Origin: a virus
Taxonomy: Duplodnaviria; Caudoviricetes
Length of the DNA stretch: 24,002 nt
Virus record (IMG/VR): IMGVR_UViG_3300022178_000315
Coordinates: 1-24,002 of that record
Strand: one strand, 5' to 3'
The position numbers were made by a program, and so were the translations under genes. Each line of letters starts with the position of its first letter. Within the stretch, counting starts at the first letter, position 1. This document shows, one piece after another, positions 7,457 through 24,002 of the stretch. The notes beneath the pieces are model-generated. The model searched no databases. It was not told where the DNA came from and was given only the letters and a program-made list of their open reading frames with translations.

Positions 7457-8665
7457 ATGTCAGAAACAAAAGAAGTAAAATCAGAAGGAGAATTTAAATT
7501 AAAAAAGAAAACTTCAAAAATGAAAGGCCAAGGAAATGTTGTTCCTGAGGTTACTAAGATAGATTTAAGTAAAAAAACAGAAGAAGATGCCATTCAAGTC
7601 GGAGAAACAGAAACAGTGGTTGATGATAAACAAACCAGAGATTTACCAGAAATGGAAAAAGAAGTACGGAGCGACTCCAGTGAAGTTACTAAAATTGATC
7701 TCAAAGAAAAAATAGAATCACCTTTAGAATTAGTAGAAGATGAAAACGATAACCCTGAAGAGGTCACAATGGTTGGAGGCACTGAAGGTCCCGACACCCC
7801 ACAGGAACAAAAAGAAGTATTACCGCAAGCTCAAACACAAGACTACCCAGAAAATGTAGATAAACTTATTGAGTTTATGAAAGAAACTGGCGGAACTATT
7901 GACGACTACGCTAGGCTTAATGCTGATTATAGCGACGTTGACGGAGAAGCATTATTAAAAGAATATTACAAACAAGCTAAACCACATTTAAATTCAGAAG
8001 AAATTGACTTCGTAATTGAAGACTCTTTTAGTTTTGATGAGGATTTAGACGAAGCAAGAGATATTCGAAAGAAGAAACTTGCATATAAAGAAGAAGTTGC
8101 AAAAGCCAAAAGCTATTTGGAATCGCTTAAGGATAAATATTACGCAGAGATCAAGTTGAGACCTGGGGTTAATCCTGAGCAACAAAAAGCTACAGACTTT
8201 TTTAACCGATACAACGAAGAGCAGGCAGCTACCAAAGTTAACCAAGACAGATTTATTAGCCAAACAGACGAGCTTCTTAACAACGATTTCAAAGGTTTTG
8301 ATTTTAAAGTTGGAGAGAAAAAGTTTAGATATGGCATTAAAGATCCAGTTAAGGTTGCAGATAATCAAAAAGACATTTCCACGTTCATCAAGACGTTCTT
8401 GAATGACAAAGGAGAAGTCGTAGATACAAAAGGTTATCATAAAGCTTTGTATGCAGCGCGAAACGCAGATACTATTGCACAACACTTTTATGAGCAAGGA
8501 AAAACAGACGCCATAAAAGGACAGATTGCTAAGGACAAGAATATAACTACAGAACCTAGAAAAACACAAGATGGTAATGTATTTGTAAATGGATTTAAAG
8601 TAAAAGCTATTAGCGGGCAAGACTCTTCAAAACTTAAAATTAAAACAAGAAAATTTAACAATTAA
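7457..8665 (+). CDS. Capsid scaffolding/assembly protein
   Basis: 402 aa with a very acidic low-complexity N-terminal part, helical C-terminal part and basic C-terminus (KLKIKTRKFNN); located between portal and MCP. Confidence 0.7.
   Translation: MSETKEVKSEGEFKLKKKTSKMKGQGNVVPEVTKIDLSKKTEEDAIQVGETETVVDDKQTRDLPEMEKEVRSDSSEVTKIDLKEKIESPLELVEDENDNPEEVTMVGGTEGPDTPQEQKEVLPQAQTQDYPENVDKLIEFMKETGGTIDDYARLNADYSDVDGEALLKEYYKQAKPHLNSEEIDFVIEDSFSFDEDLDEARDIRKKKLAYKEEVAKAKSYLESLKDKYYAEIKLRPGVNPEQQKATDFFNRYNEEQAATKVNQDRFISQTDELLNNDFKGFDFKVGEKKFRYGIKDPVKVADNQKDISTFIKTFLNDKGEVVDTKGYHKALYAARNADTIAQHFYEQGKTDAIKGQIAKDKNITTEPRKTQDGNVFVNGFKVKAISGQDSSKLKIKTRKFNN
7587..7715 (+). CDS. Nested small basic protein (MPFKS-type), +1 frame within the scaffold gene
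   Basis: ATG 7587 to TAG 7713-7715 gives 42 aa: MPFKSEKQKQWLMINKPEIYQKWKKKYGATPVKLLKLISKKK. This resembles a recurrent small phage protein pattern MPFKSxKQRx(W/Y)...PEIA.(K/R)W. Confidence 0.65.
   Translation: MPFKSEKQKQWLMINKPEIYQKWKKKYGATPVKLLKLISKKK
7740..7859 (+). CDS. Second nested small basic protein, +1 frame within the scaffold gene
   Basis: ATG 7740 to TAG 7857-7859 gives 39 aa: MKTITLKRSQWLEALKVPTPHRNKKKYYRKLKHKTTQKM. Confidence 0.55.
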   Translation: MKTITLKRSQWLEALKVPTPHRNKKKYYRKLKHKTTQKM

Positions 8666-10175: not shown

Positions 10176-10940
10176 ATGGCTAAAAAAGAAGTAATTCAAG
10201 ATGTATCTTGGGAAGTTAAAGATAGAACATATCTACTAACCGGGAACAATAAACCGTTGACATTAAAAATTCCATCAAGACACAACACGAGACATGCTCT
10301 GTTGTATTACGATGAAAGCAATAATACGCAGCGTGAAATAAGATATGCAACTAATCAAAACTCACCCTTCAAAGAAGAGCAAGGTGGAGAAGCAACATTA
10401 GGGCATATTGTTTTTAAAGAAGGAAGCTTGTTTGTTCCAAAAAAGAACCAAGTTCTTCAAAAAATATTATCGTTATATCACCCACTAAAAGGAGTTATAT
10501 ACTCTGAATTAGACGTAGTGGAAGAAGCTAAAGATGAACTTTTAGATTTAGAATTAGAAATCGAAGCATTAAACCTAGCTCAGAACATTGATGTAGATCA
10601 AGCTGAAGCTATAATGAGAGTTGAGATTGGATCTAAAGTGTCTGACATGAGTTCTAAGGAGCTTAAAAGAGATTTATTGTTATTCGCTAAGCATAACCCT
10701 AAACTCTTTATTACACTAGCTAATGATGATAACGTACAATTAAGAAATTTTGCAATTAGAGCAACTGAAGCTAAGATAATTAAACTAGCTGATGACCAAA
10801 GAACATTTACTTGGGCTTCTAATGGTAGAAAATTAATGACAGTGCCTTTTGACGAAAACCCATACTCAGCTATGGCGTCGTTCTTCAAGACAGACGAAGG
10901 CATTCAAGTCTTTCAGTCTATAGAGAAAAAGTTCTCTTAA
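10176..10940 (+). CDS. Conserved head-associated protein downstream of MCP
   Basis: 254 aa with a clean ATG and leader; occupies the position of the post-MCP gene in crAss-like modules. Function unknown. Confidence 0.6.
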   Translation: MAKKEVIQDVSWEVKDRTYLLTGNNKPLTLKIPSRHNTRHALLYYDESNNTQREIRYATNQNSPFKEEQGGEATLGHIVFKEGSLFVPKKNQVLQKILSLYHPLKGVIYSELDVVEEAKDELLDLELEIEALNLAQNIDVDQAEAIMRVEIGSKVSDMSSKELKRDLLLFAKHNPKLFITLANDDNVQLRNFAIRATEAKIIKLADDQRTFTWASNGRKLMTVPFDENPYSAMASFFKTDEGIQVFQSIEKKFS

Positions 10941-17427: not shown

Positions 17428-18882
17428 ATGGCTGGAGTAATAGAAGTTAAATTTTTTAACAGTTTTATACTGAGAAAAACTCTTGATGCGTTAGATATTC
17501 CTGTGTGGAATGGCTCTAGAGGAGATGGCACGTATCCACCAGATGCAAATCCAGCCGTATCTAACGACGCTAATTGGGCTATTGAAGAAGCTAGAATAAC
17601 AGGTGGATACAATAATACGCAAACAGATATAGGTGTAAAAGCTTATTTAACTGAAAGCGAGCCTAACGCAGTGTTTAAAACCAATAGTATGATATACTCA
17701 GGTATATTTAATTCTAGAACAGGTATAAACGATACTAACGTATTTTCAGTTGGAACAGATATAACTAAAAGTGTAAATCCAGCACATGGTTCTATACAAA
17801 AACTATATGCAGAAGATACTAACTTAATAATATTTCAAGAATCCAAAGTAAGTCGCGCTTTAATCGATAAAGATGCCATTTACTCAGCGGAAGGAGGTCA
17901 AATATCTACCGTAGGAAATGTTGTTATTGGACCTGTAACTGCTTATGCTGGTGATTTTGGAATAAGTAGAAACCCCGAAAGTTTTGCTATTTACGGTAGA
18001 AGAAAATACTTTACAGACAAGAATAGAAACGTACTTTTAAGACTTTCTAATGATGGTTTAACTGAAATATCTAATTATGGTATGTCTGACTTCTTTAGAG
18101 ACGAATTAAGTGCTTTAAATGGCAACGCAAGCACGTCAACAGGTAAAGCCGTAGGAGCTTGGGATATTCACTCAAGACAATATGCACTGTCTTTACAAAA
18201 ATACGTTACTCCTGGCTCTCCGCAAGTGTTTAAAACTCTTTCTTTCGATGATAGCGTGAATGGATTTCCTAGTTTCTTTGATTATGCTCCGGATCACGGT
18301 GATAGCATTAAAAACGAATACTACACTATTAAAGACGGTAGTATGTGGCTGCATTATAGTCCTACCGCTTTAAGATCTAACTTCTACGGAACTCAATATA
18401 AGTCTAGCATACAGTTTGTTTTTAATCCTAAAGTTAGTATGTCTAAAGTTTTTAAGACTATCAACTACGAAGGAGGAAATGGTTGGGAAGTAAATGCATT
18501 TCAATCAGATATAACTGGAATACATAGTATTGGTGCTCCAGAAGGTGCTTTGAATGACGAATGGGAATTAGGAACTAGAGATACAACGGCTTTAGTGTAT
18601 AGCTATAATCAAGGATCTTACGACAACTATGGTAATACATTTCCAAGTCAATTAACTCCTCCAATAAATCACGCTGGTTTTGATCGTAAAGAAAATAAAT
18701 ACATGTCTAACTTAATAAACAATAGTCCAGCCGCAGCTGGTGAAGTTATGTTTGGAGCTGACATGACGGGTATAAAAGGTTACTTTGCAACAGTAACAAT
18801 GTCTACAGATAACGTAACTGACGTAGGCGGAATGAAAGAATTGTTCGCAGCGTCTTCAAGCTATGTAGAGTCATCATATTAA
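17428..18882 (+). CDS. Tail muzzle/stabilisation protein, C-terminal beta-propeller-like part
   Basis: 484 aa with GSIQKLYAEDTNLIIFQESKV, GISRNPESFA...YFTD...LRLSNDGLTEIS.YGM and SKVFKTINYEG motifs corresponding to the C-terminal half of crAss-like muzzle proteins. Confidence 0.7.
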   Translation: MAGVIEVKFFNSFILRKTLDALDIPVWNGSRGDGTYPPDANPAVSNDANWAIEEARITGGYNNTQTDIGVKAYLTESEPNAVFKTNSMIYSGIFNSRTGINDTNVFSVGTDITKSVNPAHGSIQKLYAEDTNLIIFQESKVSRALIDKDAIYSAEGGQISTVGNVVIGPVTAYAGDFGISRNPESFAIYGRRKYFTDKNRNVLLRLSNDGLTEISNYGMSDFFRDELSALNGNASTSTGKAVGAWDIHSRQYALSLQKYVTPGSPQVFKTLSFDDSVNGFPSFFDYAPDHGDSIKNEYYTIKDGSMWLHYSPTALRSNFYGTQYKSSIQFVFNPKVSMSKVFKTINYEGGNGWEVNAFQSDITGIHSIGAPEGALNDEWELGTRDTTALVYSYNQGSYDNYGNTFPSQLTPPINHAGFDRKENKYMSNLINNSPAAAGEVMFGADMTGIKGYFATVTMSTDNVTDVGGMKELFAASSSYVESSY

Positions 18883-19307: not shown

Positions 19308-20033
19308 ATGGCATTAGTAACAGCAGCAATAATTGGAGGCATAGCAGCGGTAGCAGGTAGCACTATAGGTGCTGTTTCGGCCGGCAAAGCCGAAAGAAGG
19401 GCTAGATCAGATAAAAACAGACTCACTGGTGAGCTAGAAGAGTTAGAATTAAAACGACAAGACATTATAAACCCCTATGAGGGTGTAACAGATTTATCTA
19501 GTATGGTATCTGATTTAAGTAGTATCGCTTCTAATCCTTATCAAAACTTAGCTGTATCTACTGCGGCTGCTGAGATGCAGATAGAAGAAGCTGATATAGC
19601 TTTAGCTAATACTCTAGATACTCTTAGAGCTACTGGTGCTAGTGCTGGTGGAGCTACTGCTCTGGCTAGAATGGCATTGGAAAGTAAAAAAGGCGTATCA
19701 GCTAGTATAGAACAACAAGAGGCTGACAATCAAAGATTAAGAGCTAGCGGCGAAGAAAGACTTCAAAATGTTGAGTTAAACGAAGCTAAAAGAGTTCAAT
19801 CTGGATTAATGGGTGAAGCTCAAAGAATACAAGCTGTTGAGGCTGATGCTGAGTTATTCCAGTTTGGTCAAAAAGAAAAAAGAGAAAAAGAGCAACTTAA
19901 TAGAAAACAGTCTCAAATAACAGGAGCGGCAATGCAAGAAGGAGCGGCTGTTGAAGCTAAAGGAGCTGCTATAGGTGGTGGAGTTTCGGCTGTTGGTAAT
20001 TTAGCTGGATCTTATATGGGTGCAAAAGGTTAA
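19308..20033 (+). CDS. Internal virion / DNA ejection protein
   Basis: 241 aa with G/A-rich hydrophobic N- and C-termini, a central coiled coil and a GASAGGATALA motif; position follows the GNAT-like gene. Confidence 0.65.
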   Translation: MALVTAAIIGGIAAVAGSTIGAVSAGKAERRARSDKNRLTGELEELELKRQDIINPYEGVTDLSSMVSDLSSIASNPYQNLAVSTAAAEMQIEEADIALANTLDTLRATGASAGGATALARMALESKKGVSASIEQQEADNQRLRASGEERLQNVELNEAKRVQSGLMGEAQRIQAVEADAELFQFGQKEKREKEQLNRKQSQITGAAMQEGAAVEAKGAAIGGGVSAVGNLAGSYMGAKG

Positions 20034-20040
20034 TCAAAAT

Positions 20041-21201
20041 ATGGAAGCAAAACAAAATACTTTTACATCTGTAAATAAAGAAGCTAATAAGATATGGACA
20101 AGCGCTATAGGCGATTTAGGTCTAGATACTATTGAGTCTATAAATAAAAACAAAGCCTTTATGTCTGCTTCTCAAAAAGAAGCCGCTACAGTGCAACGTG
20201 ACATATCTGCAAAGCTTTTTGACAATCAAGAAGAAGCTTTAAATAGTATGAAAAAAGGTGGTATTAGGAACCCATCTTTAGCTAAATTAGGTAATGACTT
20301 AATATGGGGAATATACTACGCTGATGCGGCTGTTTCTCAGGCTAAAACTAGACAAGAAAGAAATGACGCTAACATAGCTTTGTCTAAATTAAACAAATCC
20401 CTTCAAGAGCTTTATAAGATAATAGAGATAGGTAAAGATACTGATGCTATTTTCATGCAAGAATATTTTGGACTAGAAGGATCCAAAAATCCAGGTCAAC
20501 CAGGTGGTATGGCTTTAGTTGGTAGAGATACTCCGCTATGGTGTAAGACGATGGCAATAAGAAGCGGTTTAGCTGGTGATAGTGCTAGTGAAGAATATAT
20601 TGTTGGTGATAACAGCGAAATAAGATTAAGATACACTGGATCTATCTTAAATGGAGAGGCTGTAGATAAACCAGCTTTAACATGGTTAGCTTATGATCCT
20701 GGCATTATATTGGATTTAAAAAGTGAGAACATAAAAATGCTTCAAGCTCCAAGTGCTTTAAACGCTGATGGAGAACAAGTTGGTATTATAGACAGTAGCT
20801 TACAGTATAACGATGCTTACTTATTATTAGATCAAAAGTACATGGAAGTATCTAAAGACGGTAAAACTCAAACAGAGTTTATACCTGCTAACATGGCTAA
20901 AATAGTATACGACACAAAAGCTAGATCTGCAGCTAGAGCAAACGCTTTGTTAAATGACTATCAAGAAGCTAATAGAGTTTGGAGAAATAACTTTAACATG
21001 GAAGAAGATCTTAAATTTGCAGTAGCAGCTAACGGTAAAAATGTAGACGCAGGACAGCAAGCTGAGTTTCAAGAGCTTATGTTTGGTAGCTTAAAACCAT
21101 TGTTACCTACGGTAGCAGTTGGTGCAACTACAGAGGTAGTTAAAGAAGTACAACCTGAGATGGTTGAAGAAGAAGCATTAACAGCAGATCAATTTAACTA
21201 G
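20041..21201 (+). CDS. Putative internal virion / ejection protein
   Basis: The ORF track starts at GTG 20020 inside the previous gene; the in-frame ATG at 20041 after TAATCAAAAT is more plausible (386 aa). Largely helical; function is inferred from position. Confidence 0.55.
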   Translation: MEAKQNTFTSVNKEANKIWTSAIGDLGLDTIESINKNKAFMSASQKEAATVQRDISAKLFDNQEEALNSMKKGGIRNPSLAKLGNDLIWGIYYADAAVSQAKTRQERNDANIALSKLNKSLQELYKIIEIGKDTDAIFMQEYFGLEGSKNPGQPGGMALVGRDTPLWCKTMAIRSGLAGDSASEEYIVGDNSEIRLRYTGSILNGEAVDKPALTWLAYDPGIILDLKSENIKMLQAPSALNADGEQVGIIDSSLQYNDAYLLLDQKYMEVSKDGKTQTEFIPANMAKIVYDTKARSAARANALLNDYQEANRVWRNNFNMEEDLKFAVAANGKNVDAGQQAEFQELMFGSLKPLLPTVAVGATTEVVKEVQPEMVEEEALTADQFN

Positions 21202-21202
21202 T

Positions 21203-21450
21203 ATGTATACATATAAAGATAGAGAGTTAACTAAAGAGCAGGTAGATAAACTCGCTGCTGAAAAAGGTGTTGAAGTTAATGTTTTTTTAACTAACAACCC
21301 AGATATAAAAATACAAGAGGCGGTAGTAGAAACTACTGAACCAGAGGGAAAGACAACAGCCACAGAAACGGACACGTCTGTGGATGCGATCGAAGTGTCC
21401 GGTACGGAATCACAATCGGAAGATGGTTCTTTGGAATTAAAAGAAACTAA
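21203..21450 (+). CDS. Predicted 82-aa transframe (-1 frameshift) product of the giant gene
   Basis: 50 zero-frame residues ending ...TTEPEGK, then the -1 frame from 21352 reads DNSHRNGHVCGCDRSVRYGITIGRWFFGIKRN, with TAA at 21448-21450. Confidence 0.6.
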
Positions 21451-24002
21451 ATATAAAACTCCTTTAACTTTAGAAGAAAAGAAATCTTTACAAAACAATC
21501 AGTTTTCTAAACAGATGTCTAAAGAAGATAACTTTACTAAAGAAAGACTTGAAGAGTTAACCAAACAAAAAGAAGATATAGTATCAGGCTATGATACTAT
21601 AATAGAAAGAGAGTTAGGTGTAAATGAGGTTACTGATTTTTTTGGAGATCTATATAGGGCTGGAGAACAAGGTTTTGAACAAGCTAAAGCCGTTGATCCT
21701 AGTATAGATATATATAGAGCAGGAAAAGAGACTTCTGACGAGCAAATAATAAAATGGATTGAAACAAATAAAAGCATTGCAGATAAAAATAAAGAATCTG
21801 AAGAAATGCAAAGTTTTAATAAAATATATAAAGAAAATGGTGGTGGTTGGCTAGGGTTCGTAAAAGGAGTTGCTAAAAATCCTTCTACTTTATCTTCAAT
21901 GTTAGTAAGTTCTATGACCACTCAATTAGGATCTTTACAGTCTGAAGAAGTTTTAGCTTCGGCAGCCGCGGGTGGAACCGCTGGGGCAGCTGGAGGATCT
22001 TTATTCGCCGGAATAGGCGCTATACCAGGTGGATTAGCTGGCGCTATGAGTGGCACTATGACAGCTATGGAAACTGGATTGACTTTTTCTGAACTATTAA
22101 CCGAAGAAGTAGGTGAGGATATTGACGTTGACAAAGTTAGAAAAATTTTAGAAAATCCAAAAAAACTAGCTGAATTAAAAAACAAAGCATTAGGAAGAGG
22201 TATTGCTATAGGCGCTATTGAATTAGCTACGATGGGATTAGCTAAAGGTGTTGGAGGAAAAATAGCTAAAGCTGGGTTTAAAGGAGCTAAACCAACTGGA
22301 ATCGCAGCTGCTGGGGCAGTTGAAGTCGTTGGCGGAGGAACAGGTGAAGTTGCTGGAAGATTTGTAGCTGACCAAGAAATGGATATTGCTGAAATAGGTT
22401 TTGAAGCTTTTGCTGGTTTAGGCAGTGCTCCTGTAACTATAGCTAGTCAATTAACAGATTTAGGCAGAAATGTAGATATAGCAAATTTAAACAAGTTTTT
22501 AAATGAAACTAACTATAAAGAAGTTACAGAAGCTTTTTTACCAGAAGTTGAAACTTCTGAAGCTCAAGTTAAAATGGCTCAAAGCAAAAACGCTGTTGAT
22601 ATAATAGATAAAAAGCTAAAACAAGAGGTTATTGACGGTGTTAAAACACCTGAAGAAGCAGATGCTGTTGCTTTAAACTTTAGAGAAACTCAAGGAGCTG
22701 TAAACCAAATAAAACCTTTAAAACTTTCTACAAAAGATCAGGCCACGGCTGTTCAGTTGATGAAAGAAAAGAAACAACTTAGCAACGAAATAAAACAAGT
22801 TGGTGAGGCTAATTTAACTATAGAGCAATCTAATAGAATTAAAGAAATAGATAATGATCTAAAAAATATTGGTTCTAAAGCTGTTACGCAGGAAGTTGAA
22901 AAAGTTAAAAAAGCTGCTGAAAGCATTAAAGACTTAGATGTTCAAGAATTTGCAAGCACAGAAGAAACAGAAGCTTTTTTAAATAAACAAAATCAAGATC
23001 CTAAAGCGTCTGGTCAACAAGGATTTATAATTCAAGATCCTAAAACAGGTAAGCAAACTATTGTAATAAATAGAGAAATAGCTGACAAAGAAATAGCCGT
23101 TGCCGCACCGTCTCACGAGTTTTTACATGCGTTATTATTTCAAACTGTCAAAGACAGTCCTGAAACGCAACTAGCGTTAGGTAATTCTTTAAAAGAATAT
23201 ATAAATAAAATAGACGTTGACAAGGTAGTTAAAGATAGTAATTTTGCTAAAAGATTAGAACAATATAAATCTGATCCTGAGGCTGTGCAAGCTGAAGAAG
23301 TTTTAACTTTATTTTCTGACGCTATTAGAACTGAAGATATTAAGTTTAATGAAACTGTTTTTACTAAAGTTGGTGATGTTATTCGTAAAGCCCTACAAGC
23401 TTTAGGTGTTAAAGTTAAGTTTAATAACGGTAAAGACGTTTATAACTTTATAAAAGACTATAATAAAAGTTTAGAATCTACTGGACTTACTAAGGCTCAA
23501 GTTAAAGCTGCAGAAGGAGTTACAGGTGAGTTAGTTGCTGACAAGGTTAAAACAGACGAGCAGATTATAAAAGAGTCTAGATCTGAAGAAGCATCCGCAA
23601 GAGTTCAAGAATTGTATGACACACAAGGTGAAGCTGCTGCGTTTGACATTATAGAGCAGTTCAAACCTATAACTAGTAAGATAGTAGAAAAAAGATCTGA
23701 AGCCCCAGGCTTTGACCGTCAGCTACTTACAGACGAAATAGAAACTGGCAAGCGAGGTATATTAGATTTAATTAAAGAATATAAACCTGAAATGAAAACA
23801 CCATTAGCTGCCTGGATAAATAAGTTTTTACCAGCTAGAGCTATTGAAGCATCAAAAAGAATACTAGGTAAAGAATTTACTGATGATATTACCGAAGCTA
23901 AAGGTGTTGCCGCTGAAGAGGTTAGCGTTGCTGAAAAACCTATAGACAAATCAACTACATCTAAACTAAGAAGAGTTCTTGGAATAAAACAAGGTGATGC
24001 TA
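21203..24002 (+). CDS. Giant internal virion (polyvalent/ejection) protein, 3'-partial, with glycine-zipper segments, HExxH zincin and a sigma70 region-2-like segment
   Basis: Not in the ORF track because it has no stop in the window. ATG 21203 opens MYTYKDRELTKEQVDKLAAEKG... and stays open for 933 codons to the window end. HEFLH is at 23114-23128, the downstream EEV at 23294, and the sigma-like stretch at about 23633-23866. Confidence 0.85.
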   Translation, partial: MYTYKDRELTKEQVDKLAAEKGVEVNVFLTNNPDIKIQEAVVETTEPEGKTTATETDTSVDAIEVSGTESQSEDGSLELKETKYKTPLTLEEKKSLQNNQFSKQMSKEDNFTKERLEELTKQKEDIVSGYDTIIERELGVNEVTDFFGDLYRAGEQGFEQAKAVDPSIDIYRAGKETSDEQIIKWIETNKSIADKNKESEEMQSFNKIYKENGGGWLGFVKGVAKNPSTLSSMLVSSMTTQLGSLQSEEVLASAAAGGTAGAAGGSLFAGIGAIPGGLAGAMSGTMTAMETGLTFSELLTEEVGEDIDVDKVRKILENPKKLAELKNKALGRGIAIGAIELATMGLAKGVGGKIAKAGFKGAKPTGIAAAGAVEVVGGGTGEVAGRFVADQEMDIAEIGFEAFAGLGSAPVTIASQLTDLGRNVDIANLNKFLNETNYKEVTEAFLPEVETSEAQVKMAQSKNAVDIIDKKLKQEVIDGVKTPEEADAVALNFRETQGAVNQIKPLKLSTKDQATAVQLMKEKKQLSNEIKQVGEANLTIEQSNRIKEIDNDLKNIGSKAVTQEVEKVKKAAESIKDLDVQEFASTEETEAFLNKQNQDPKASGQQGFIIQDPKTGKQTIVINREIADKEIAVAAPSHEFLHALLFQTVKDSPETQLALGNSLKEYINKIDVDKVVKDSNFAKRLEQYKSDPEAVQAEEVLTLFSDAIRTEDIKFNETVFTKVGDVIRKALQALGVKVKFNNGKDVYNFIKDYNKSLESTGLTKAQVKAAEGVTGELVADKVKTDEQIIKESRSEEASARVQELYDTQGEAAAFDIIEQFKPITSKIVEKRSEAPGFDRQLLTDEIETGKRGILDLIKEYKPEMKTPLAAWINKFLPARAIEASKRILGKEFTDDITEAKGVAAEEVSVAEKPIDKSTTSKLRRVLGIKQGDA
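21346..21401 (+). other. Predicted -1 programmed ribosomal frameshift signal: slippery heptamer plus H-type pseudoknot
   Basis: In-frame G_GGA_AAG (21346-21352), 7-nt spacer ACAACAG, stem 1 CCACAGA (21360-21366)/TCTGTGG (21377-21383), stem 2 CGGACAC (21369-21375)/GTGTCCG (21395-21401). Confidence 0.8.

Follow-up and report, generated by a model that had tools for sequence, protein, structure and literature searches.

Does the giant gene that closes the structural module of an uncultured tailed phage give rise to one protein or to two? The question is raised by a stretch of 24,002 nucleotides (nt) of a virus of the Caudoviricetes (IMG/VR record IMGVR_UViG_3300022178_000315, positions 1 to 24,002; hereafter the window), a fragment of an uncultured virus record that is estimated to be 39% complete. 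Close to the 5' end of its giant open reading frame (ORF) lies a cassette composed of a slippery heptamer, a candidate pseudoknot and a short ORF in the -1 frame. An earlier examination of the letters alone, here called the sequence-only reading, had proposed that some ribosomes change frame at this point and release a truncated protein. We followed the cassette through the window, its close relatives and a wider family of virus loci, and we consider it probable, at roughly four in five, that a programmed -1 frameshift at codons 48-50 yields an 82-residue protein beside the full-length giant. The evidence consists of the conservation of the heptamer, the covariation of the stems, a switch of selection to the -1 frame, the lack of a start codon in that frame, and a family in which other slip devices lead to the same tail.

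The elements named by the sequence-only reading are all present in the window (Table 1), including the phased G_GGA_AAG, the spacer, and the two interleaved, perfect stems of 7 base pairs (bp), in which the arms of stem 1 enclose loop 1, the 5' arm of stem 2 and loop 2. After the heptamer, the -1 frame reads GK, then DNSHRNGHVCGCDRSVRYGITIGRWFFGIKRN, then TAA, and the predicted frameshift product would have 50 + 32 = 82 residues. The GC-rich island described earlier was recovered as well (GC content of 0.53 in 21340-21429 vs. 0.20-0.37 in the adjoining 60-nt windows). The stacking energies of this 7+7 bp H-type knot sum to -20.1 kcal/mol. On both strands of the window, it is the single H-type knot with two perfect 7-bp stems, while dinucleotide shuffles of the window held on average 0.09 such knots (at least one in 8 of 100 shuffles). 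Phased XXXYYYZ sites with Y being A or T are common (51 in 18 window ORFs, 7,829 codons), and just one of them is GGGAAAG; the joint expectation for a 7+7 knot placed 5-9 nt 3' of a phased heptamer amounts to ~5e-4 per window. Among the Rfam covariance models no family was found over the knot, the sole match being rli43 at 21502-21666, which is below threshold (21.9 bits vs. a gathering score of 100).

Table 1. Coordinates of the giant ORF and of the frameshift cassette in the window
Feature	Position	Strand	Details
Giant ORF, zero frame	21203..24001	+	ATG at 21203; 933 codons, open at the 3' end
Codons 1-50, N-terminal module common to both predicted products	21203..21352	+	
TGA closing the -1 frame, two codons 5' of the slip site	21337..21339	+	
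Slippery heptamer G_GGA_AAG, X_XXY_YYZ phase	21346..21352	+	codons 48-50 = GAG GGA AAG
Spacer	21353..21359	+	ACAACAG, 7 nt; sequence variable among relatives
Pseudoknot stem 1	21360..21383	+	CCACAGA 21360-21366 with TCTGTGG 21377-21383
Pseudoknot stem 2	21369..21401	+	CGGACAC 21369-21375 with GTGTCCG 21395-21401
Pseudoknot loops			loop 1 AA 21367-68 (2 nt); loop 2 G 21376 (1 nt); loop 3 21384-94 (11 nt)
-1 frame ORF from the heptamer	21346..21450	+	GK + 32 residues, stop TAA 21448-21450
Conserved tail core, -1 frame	21403..21438	+	YGITIGRWFFGI

According to the sequence-only reading, a genuine signal should show in homologs as a retained heptamer, covarying stems and purifying selection on the -1 frame peptide. 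A protein search with the first 150 residues of the giant protein gave 25 relatives, and the DNA of 27 close loci (L003-L029) together with the window copy (L001) made up a set of 28, of which 27 were complete, with 21 distinct cassettes among these. GGGAAAG stands in phase in 27/28 loci, with the slip codon at index 33-48 in 27 of them. The first G of the heptamer comes from a GAG codon in 24 loci, from GCG in 2 and from CTG in 2 (E, A and L, respectively), the third-position G being constant. Past the heptamer, an open -1 frame of 32-37 codons is seen in all 27 complete loci, ending soon after a conserved ...YGI(T/S/A)(I/F/V)G(R/S/A/K)WFFG... motif. Independent initiation of the -1 ORF was considered and ruled out, as ATG, GTG and TTG are absent from it in 21/21 distinct sequences. 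The nearest upstream stop of the -1 frame lies 0-23 codons before the heptamer (it abuts the heptamer in L003 and L022), and with no start codon and a stop so close, entry into the -1 frame is therefore restricted to the heptamer or a point 3' of it. Stops interrupt the +1 frame in 17/21 distinct sequences. In the protein alignment of these relatives, at least four unrelated N-terminal modules and differing bodies flank one conserved block that starts at EGK. By comparison, the 393-residue gene that lies upstream reaches just 29-35% identity in 13 of the loci; conservation of the cassette thus greatly exceeds that of the sequence around it.

Which frame is constrained in the overlap can be read from the codon positions at which the sequences vary. 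Counted by zero-frame codon position 1/2/3, the variable columns number 14/21/15 across the overlap, where 18 sequences could be aligned, and 1/8/5 across the ten codons 3' of the knot, as compared with 11/9/22 in the downstream flank (12 sequences) and 5/1/9 in the upstream flank (7 sequences), with p = 0.0097 and 0.0048 in Fisher tests on the codon-position pattern. The altered pattern in the overlap is explained by the fact that the second position of a zero-frame codon serves as the wobble position in the -1 frame. The ratio of non-synonymous to synonymous polymorphism (pN/pS) takes values in the overlap of 1.03 (zero frame) and 0.43 (-1 frame), which fall to 0.68 and 0.25, respectively, after the knot. 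In the flanks the order is inverted, with 0.14 for the zero frame and 6.9 for the -1 frame downstream, and 0.25 and 3.5 upstream. A radical change in the zero frame (TESQSEDGSLELKE vs. TESPLDPGSSGFTEE) is, for instance, a conservative one in the -1 frame (YGITIGRWFFGIKRN vs. YGISFGSWFFGFYRGR). These substitution patterns indicate that, inside the overlap, the frame under purifying selection is the -1 frame.

The stems are retained too. In 20 sequences of the window and its relatives, the six inner pairs of each stem hold in 18-20/20 and the outermost pairs in 9/20, and the one-sided changes are compatible with wobble pairing; three both-sided changes in this alignment were left unused as an artefact of the misaligned, diverged L021, whose own knot is formed by CCACAA/TTGTGG and GGATGC/GCATCC. 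In a gap-free alignment of the window architecture (13 sequences), 92.9% of the cells pair, vs. 23.1-42.9% with slid partners, six pairs are changed on both sides (4/7 of the stem 2 pairs), and the covariation score was reached by 0/500 shuffles. A second architecture with a long stem (8 sequences) gave 91.7% paired cells, compensatory changes in 5/11 stem-1 pairs, and again a score reached by 0/500 shuffles. It includes L002, a locus found via the protein body, with G_GAA_AAG, a 6-nt spacer, the stems GATGTTGTGG/CTGTAACATC and GGATGC/GCATCC, and the tail ...YGIRAGRYFFGIRRS. L013 and L014 carry an unrelated 10-bp stem 1 located 6 nt 3' of the same heptamer, and the spacers of the relatives measure 5-7 nt. 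By these alignments, heptamer, knot and -1 peptide are conserved together, and all three of the homolog comparisons foreseen by the sequence-only reading came out in its favour.

The tail itself is found far beyond the close relatives. A degenerate DNA pattern built on it retrieved an estimated ~720 IMG/VR stretches, of which 120 were examined. In 109/120, which make up 107 distinct family loci, the tail lies in an ORF of at most 70 codons that is -1 to an ORF of at least 150 codons, and it starts 48-129 codons (median 67.5; 104 loci) after the first ATG of the long ORF. Its conserved part consists of basic residues followed by YG[IFVL]x[FIL]Gx[WYF]FFG[FIL]. A phased XXXYYYZ is present within the permitted interval in 79/107 loci, at a density of 0.0495 per codon vs. 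0.0145 downstream. By slip site, the family divides into GGGAAAN (35 loci), runs of at least seven A (36 loci; A10 in 25, A9 in 7, A8 in 1 and A7 in 3), phased NNNAAAG (16 loci; e.g., G_GAA_AAG or A_GCA_AAG) and others (20 loci), 14 of the last having a TTTT[CA]A string, mostly GAT TTT CAA, i.e., T_TTT_C. Judging by these strings, at least four slip devices lead to the tail (G_GGA_AAG, N_NNA_AAG, T_TTT_C and A8-A11 runs), and T_TTT_C among them is a non-canonical slip site that would permit the re-pairing of a single tRNA-Phe only. GAT TTT CAA was seen at the entry to the tail frame in, e.g., L048, L050, L069, L078, L084, L104, L107 and L144. With a threshold for H-type knots set at a stacking energy of at most -14 kcal/mol and a spacer of 4-10 nt, knots were detected at 38/65 loci without poly(A) (vs. 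4/650 shuffles, and 0/65 at 200 nt downstream) and at 0/36 poly(A) loci (5/360 shuffles); 12/14 T_TTT_C-type loci have pseudoknots. The sequence-only reading had noted a distinctive CGC and an aromatic end in the -1 peptide. The aromatic end belongs to the conserved part of the tail, unlike the cysteines: the codons of the 'CxC' sit in the knot stems and the poly(A) class has neither knot nor cysteines, and the Cys/His cluster may for this reason be a by-product of RNA structure.

An RNA element with some other task (a translational brake or attenuator, a determinant of messenger RNA (mRNA) stability, or a recombination junction), with the -1 product as an unselected by-product, is the best surviving alternative, though an improbable one. 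It draws on the mosaicism of these phages, as the cassette sits at a junction on either side of which N-terminal modules and bodies have been swapped (in the window, the N-terminus is the one found in L004, and the body matches that of L003 at 95% identity). Contigs from RNA libraries, which show the presence of a sequence and not its transcription, break inside the cassette, with loose ends at 21403, 21411, 21415 and 21447 that lead to variant cassettes, e.g., of the TESPLDPGSSGF type; this fits a cassette that serves as the junction of exchangeable modules in co-occurring mosaic relatives. Moreover, the zero-frame linker is relaxed, and a constraint at the RNA level could explain why the nucleotides of the stems are conserved. 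However, the strongest -1 signal lies outside the stems, in the codons after the knot, and the tail is kept both with unrelated knots (L002, L013) and in the poly(A) relatives that have none. In addition, the -1 stop follows 3-9 residues after FFG in 101/107 loci, and in some contigs the short form is a plain ORF.

The clearest of these plain ORFs is L036:585-878 (minus strand), with an A8 run, where the short form is a contiguous ORF of 98 residues, made of an N-terminal module and KKRRYYGITFGTWFFGFVKIC, and the giant body continues in the next frame. Its N-terminal module is of the MNEQA type, with a tandem ..Y.L....GY.KS..DF..L repeat, and the module of the window belongs to another type. 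A search with this short form returned 12 proteins, five of which end in the tail (one being L036 itself), while another two continue in the third frame and a further two in that of the giant. P0027, P0028, P0030 and P0037 present the short form (with the KKKRRYYGITFG.WFFGF tail) as one ordinary ORF, as happens with a shorter A run (A8 in L036), and P0029 and P0031 have the N-terminus in the third frame. Since the frame of the N-terminus differs across assemblies, the length of the A run must vary among records. A hidden Markov model search with a tail profile against 1.84 billion representatives gave three proteins, namely P0038, in which a window-type N-terminus is fused to the tail, P0039, in which another N-terminal module is fused to it at LGK, and an unrelated one.

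Long A runs are also found in cultured relatives. The giant genes of elemoB (L150), phi38:1 (L153) and Gundel_1 (L155) have an A10 run at nt 99-170, and that of the uncultured record MW202828.1 (L151) an A11 run at nt 188. After these runs (near codons 33-63) follow -1 ORFs of 28-47 codons, basic at first and then rich in aromatic residues and glycine. The strict tail motif is absent from the -1 ORFs of elemoB, phi38:1, Gundel_1 and MW202828; they look like diverged versions of the same hidden tail. Nothing comparable was seen in the giant gene of phi19:3. In Panino (L154, PP540027.1, ~23700-23900, minus strand), an internal GTG serves as the start of the annotated giant coding sequence ('tRNA methyltransferase'); 5' of it, an ORF (MEDELMSF...) enters an A9 tract in a frame that differs from those of the giant coding sequence and of the tail, and the third frame holds a tail ending in ...GGGWFFGISRKSD. 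Because the upstream ORF, the giant coding sequence and the tail occupy three frames, the start of the Panino giant gene looks mis-called, and its expression would need slippage. Both phi38:1 (L153 5523-5596, 5806-5879) and Panino (L154 16564-16636, 16825-16899) encode tRNA-Lys(UUU) and tRNA-Gly(UCC), the transfer RNAs (tRNAs) that would read AAA/AAG and GGA/GGG slip codons.

Such runs invite a second alternative, which we rate as quite unlikely for the window, that the -1 frame is reached by slippage of the RNA polymerase or by variation in DNA length, as is plausible for the A8-A11 relatives. The runs occupy the equivalent place, assemblies put the N-terminus in any of three frames, P0039 reads as if its slip site had one extra G, and nine A or T are described as sufficient for efficient slippage of bacterial RNA polymerase (PMC5009743). 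The window, in contrast, has only G3A3 at its slip site, and the run of ~9 or more A or T that goes with transcriptional-slippage recoding is absent there. A tract of this length is reportedly too short for polymerase slippage. Knots stand only beside sites that are not poly(A), as fits a stimulator of ribosomal shifting, and contigs of four metatranscriptomic runs that cover 21346-21352 have 0 differing letters and 0 gaps, though rare variants would be hidden in contigs. That the conserved feature is instead a zero-frame peptide (e.g., a linker or cleavage motif around EGK...DGSLE), with slip site, knot and -1 ORF incidental, is hardly credible. In its favour, E48, G49, K50 and several linker residues are invariant or nearly so, and a DGSL-like motif is seen repeatedly in the family. 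Against it, A or L takes the place of E48 with no loss of the nucleotide G, the zero frame varies most at codon position 2 in the overlap, its pN/pS there is ~1, and at the tail positions the zero frame mixes S/L and G/T/I where the -1 frame stays hydrophobic or aromatic.

In the programmed frameshift that we favour, the P site would be occupied by tRNA-Gly, paired to GGA, and the A site by tRNA-Lys, paired to AAG, when the knot, located at the mRNA entry channel, resists unwinding; both tRNAs would then re-pair on GGG AAA, and 32 further codons would be read in the -1 frame until the UAA stop. Only a fraction of the ribosomes would slip, the rest yielding the full-length giant protein. The short product would be composed of the ~50-residue N-terminal module, a basic stretch and an aromatic, glycine-rich tail (YG-I-x-I-G-x-WFFG), and the long one of the same module, an acidic Thr/Ser/Glu linker and the giant body. 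The G_GGA_AAG heptamer is reported to be highly shift-prone in Escherichia coli (PMC5009743). As for function, the common module could address both products to one partner or site, with the frameshift fixing their ratio, and the basic-aromatic tail could be an anchoring or interaction element of the short form. This assignment of roles (ratio, shared addressing, tail anchoring) is the weakest step of the argument and is offered with low confidence.

Several observations weigh against the frameshift or reduce the force of the evidence for it. The close relatives are ~80-95% identical in the cassette and are mosaic recombinants, hence they represent fewer independent evolutionary events than sequences. 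All six both-sided changes in the window architecture come from the single row L080 (spacer of 7, loops of 2, 1 and 11 as in the window, stems CCACATC/GATGTGG and CGGGTGC/GCACCCG) and may amount to few independent events. The heptamer of L021 is the non-canonical G_GTA_AAG, though knot and tail are kept. Nested folding of 21353-21410 is unremarkable (minimum free energy of -15.4 kcal/mol, z = -1.19), which follows from the method, as it cannot score pseudoknots. In the wider family, 28/107 loci have no canonical heptamer and 27/65 loci without poly(A) are below the knot threshold. Conservation of Y, G, G, F, F and G, and of two further bases, is built into the retrieval pattern; at the two pattern-free positions of the tail, the -1 residues are hydrophobic in 104/107 and 106/107 loci, and at another position, for which the pattern prescribed no more than an initial T, they are W, Y or F in 104/107, where the zero frame mixes S/L and G/T/I. 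Where module and tail are already in frame (P0038 and P0039 are examples), the record may reflect a genuine variant or a faulty assembly. AlphaFold predicted four helices for residues 1-60 of the L036 short form (predicted local distance difference test, pLDDT, of 87-94) and an unstructured tail (pLDDT 48-59), and the tail modelled alone had no secondary structure (pLDDT 58.5); scores in a comparison with the ESM Atlas were below 0.8.

Known systems offer partial precedents. The dnaX shift is likewise a truncating one, with a shorter product that shares the N-terminal part of the longer, and the same pair of products is obtained via an N_NNA_AAG-type heptamer or a long A/T run, depending on the lineage (PMC5009743). 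Ribosomal slippage is described for E. coli and transcriptional slippage for Thermus thermophilus (PMC5009743). The present family shows a similar division, between relatives with G_GGA_AAG plus an RNA structure and relatives with A8-A11 runs. The window differs from dnaX in that the shift takes place at codon 50 in a gene whose length exceeds 933 codons, with an H-type pseudoknot as the stimulator, in unrelated proteins, and in that the new frame adds a conserved 32-residue tail under selection. The copA site of E. coli that Meydan et al. reported in 2017 is said to be an N_NNA_AAG-type heptamer with a downstream pseudoknot, and its product reportedly ends almost at once after the shift, without a conserved trans-frame tail. 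In CopA(Z), too, an early -1 shift in a long gene releases an N-terminal product, of ~70 residues (PMC5009743). Unlike the gene considered here, copA is a cellular metal-pump gene and not a phage structural gene.

G_GGA_AAG is also the slip site of phage lambda itself. In lambda gpG/gpGT and the other tail-assembly chaperones, -1 slippage in late genes fixes the ratio of proteins with a shared N-terminus (PMC5009743, PMC10885494), and the g-t pair of HCTV-5 is listed with the same heptamer (PMC5009743). Those shifts, however, extend the product by joining two genes upstream of the tape-measure gene, whereas the one in the window truncates it, in the giant last gene of a podovirus-type module without a tape measure. 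A G/GT-type layout (two short ORFs upstream of a tape measure, with an extending shift) was not encountered in the window. What the window does contain are the sequence features of a canonical -1 signal: a phased heptamer, a spacer of 5-9 nt, a conserved, covarying structure, and a -1 ORF that is selected and lacks a start. The sequence-only reading knew of no described case in a podovirus ejection-protein gene, and our literature searches on frameshifting and on ejection proteins, mostly at the level of abstracts and weighted towards open access, agreed with it. No description of recoding in these giant genes was found there under phage frameshifting, PRFect, crAss-like and Flavobacteria phages, Cellulophaga phages, transcriptional slippage or podovirus ejection proteins, and in the Gundel_1/Calle paper (PMC8776804) a term search found the words frameshift and slippage absent. 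The mechanism is canonical; the family is apparently large and unrecognised.

With less assurance than for the window itself, we lean towards a broader proposal: in podoviruses that infect Flavobacteriia and in uncultured phages akin to them, the giant virion genes would form a large unannotated recoded family and hide a small second protein, composed of an exchangeable N-terminal module and the near-universal tail YG-I-x-F-G-x-WFFG. At least four interchangeable slip devices would give access to it (G_GGA_AAG or N_NNA_AAG acting with a covarying pseudoknot, T_TTT_C with a pseudoknot, and A8-A11 probably via polymerase slippage), and the giant protein would require the short one as its partner in assembly or host entry. 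If real, this would add a class of phage structural genes to the short list of truncating frameshifts (dnaX, copA) and reveal a small protein that has escaped gene callers in hundreds of contigs of phages, among them cultured model phages of Cellulophaga, Flavobacterium, Tenacibaculum and Maribacter. Annotations would be corrected as well, e.g., in Panino, where an internal GTG was apparently taken as the start of the giant gene. The relatives would also form a natural series, with pseudoknot-driven slips in some and long A runs in others leading to the same product, and offer a test bed for shifting by the ribosomes of Bacteroidota, which are reported not to use Shine-Dalgarno pairing (PMC10798248).

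The giant ORF directly follows the stop of ORF 20020-21201 and is the last gene of the structural module. Its residues 130-583 are matched by phrog_32588 (PHROG), and the relatives of its product are 1,587-1,997 residues long. Further genes of the window are a co-chaperonin-like gene, the large terminase, the portal and several with PHROG matches of the type 'virion structural protein'. For the terminase, the nearest sequence is that of an uncultured podovirus record (62% identity); next comes that of Flavobacterium phage vB_FspP_elemo (44%), followed by Cellulophaga phages, Maribacter phage Panino and Tenacibaculum phage Gundel_1. In these genomes the syntenic gene is a giant ORF of ~1,690-3,860 codons, annotated as a (virion) structural protein in elemoB, phi38:1, phi19:3 and Gundel_1. 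From this synteny we infer that the giant gene encodes a virion protein, as had been suggested under the name of an ejection protein; sequence similarity lent no help to this part of the earlier claim, as tblastn searches of cultured phages with the giant protein and with P0004 gave no useful match, blastn with the region gave none, and tblastn with the 34-residue tail gave chance-level matches only (E 4-8). Similarly, Pfam had no significant family for the giant proteins or for the 25 N-terminal modules, and a sequence search of the PDB with P0004 gave no match. DUF3364 of Pfam came just under its cut-off in 5/25 N-terminal modules.

A few minor observations complete the description of the window. 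ORF 17428-18882 has the C-terminal domain of the crAss muzzle protein (PF25729, E 4e-12) and ORF 1971-2576 is a GroES-like co-chaperonin (phrog_13932); the muzzle domain and the co-chaperonin tie these phages both to tails like those of Crassvirales and to the Pervagoviridae, which carry cpn10 (PMC8776804). A minus-strand ORF at 21178-21498 (106 codons, TTG start) was considered as an antisense gene and rejected, as all three antisense frames are stopped in several relatives; its third codon positions coincide with those of the zero frame, a misfit to the pattern of variation. Two further phased A_AAA_AAG heptamers occur elsewhere in the window, at 7501-7507 (ORF 7457-8665) and 10439-10445 (ORF 10176-10940).

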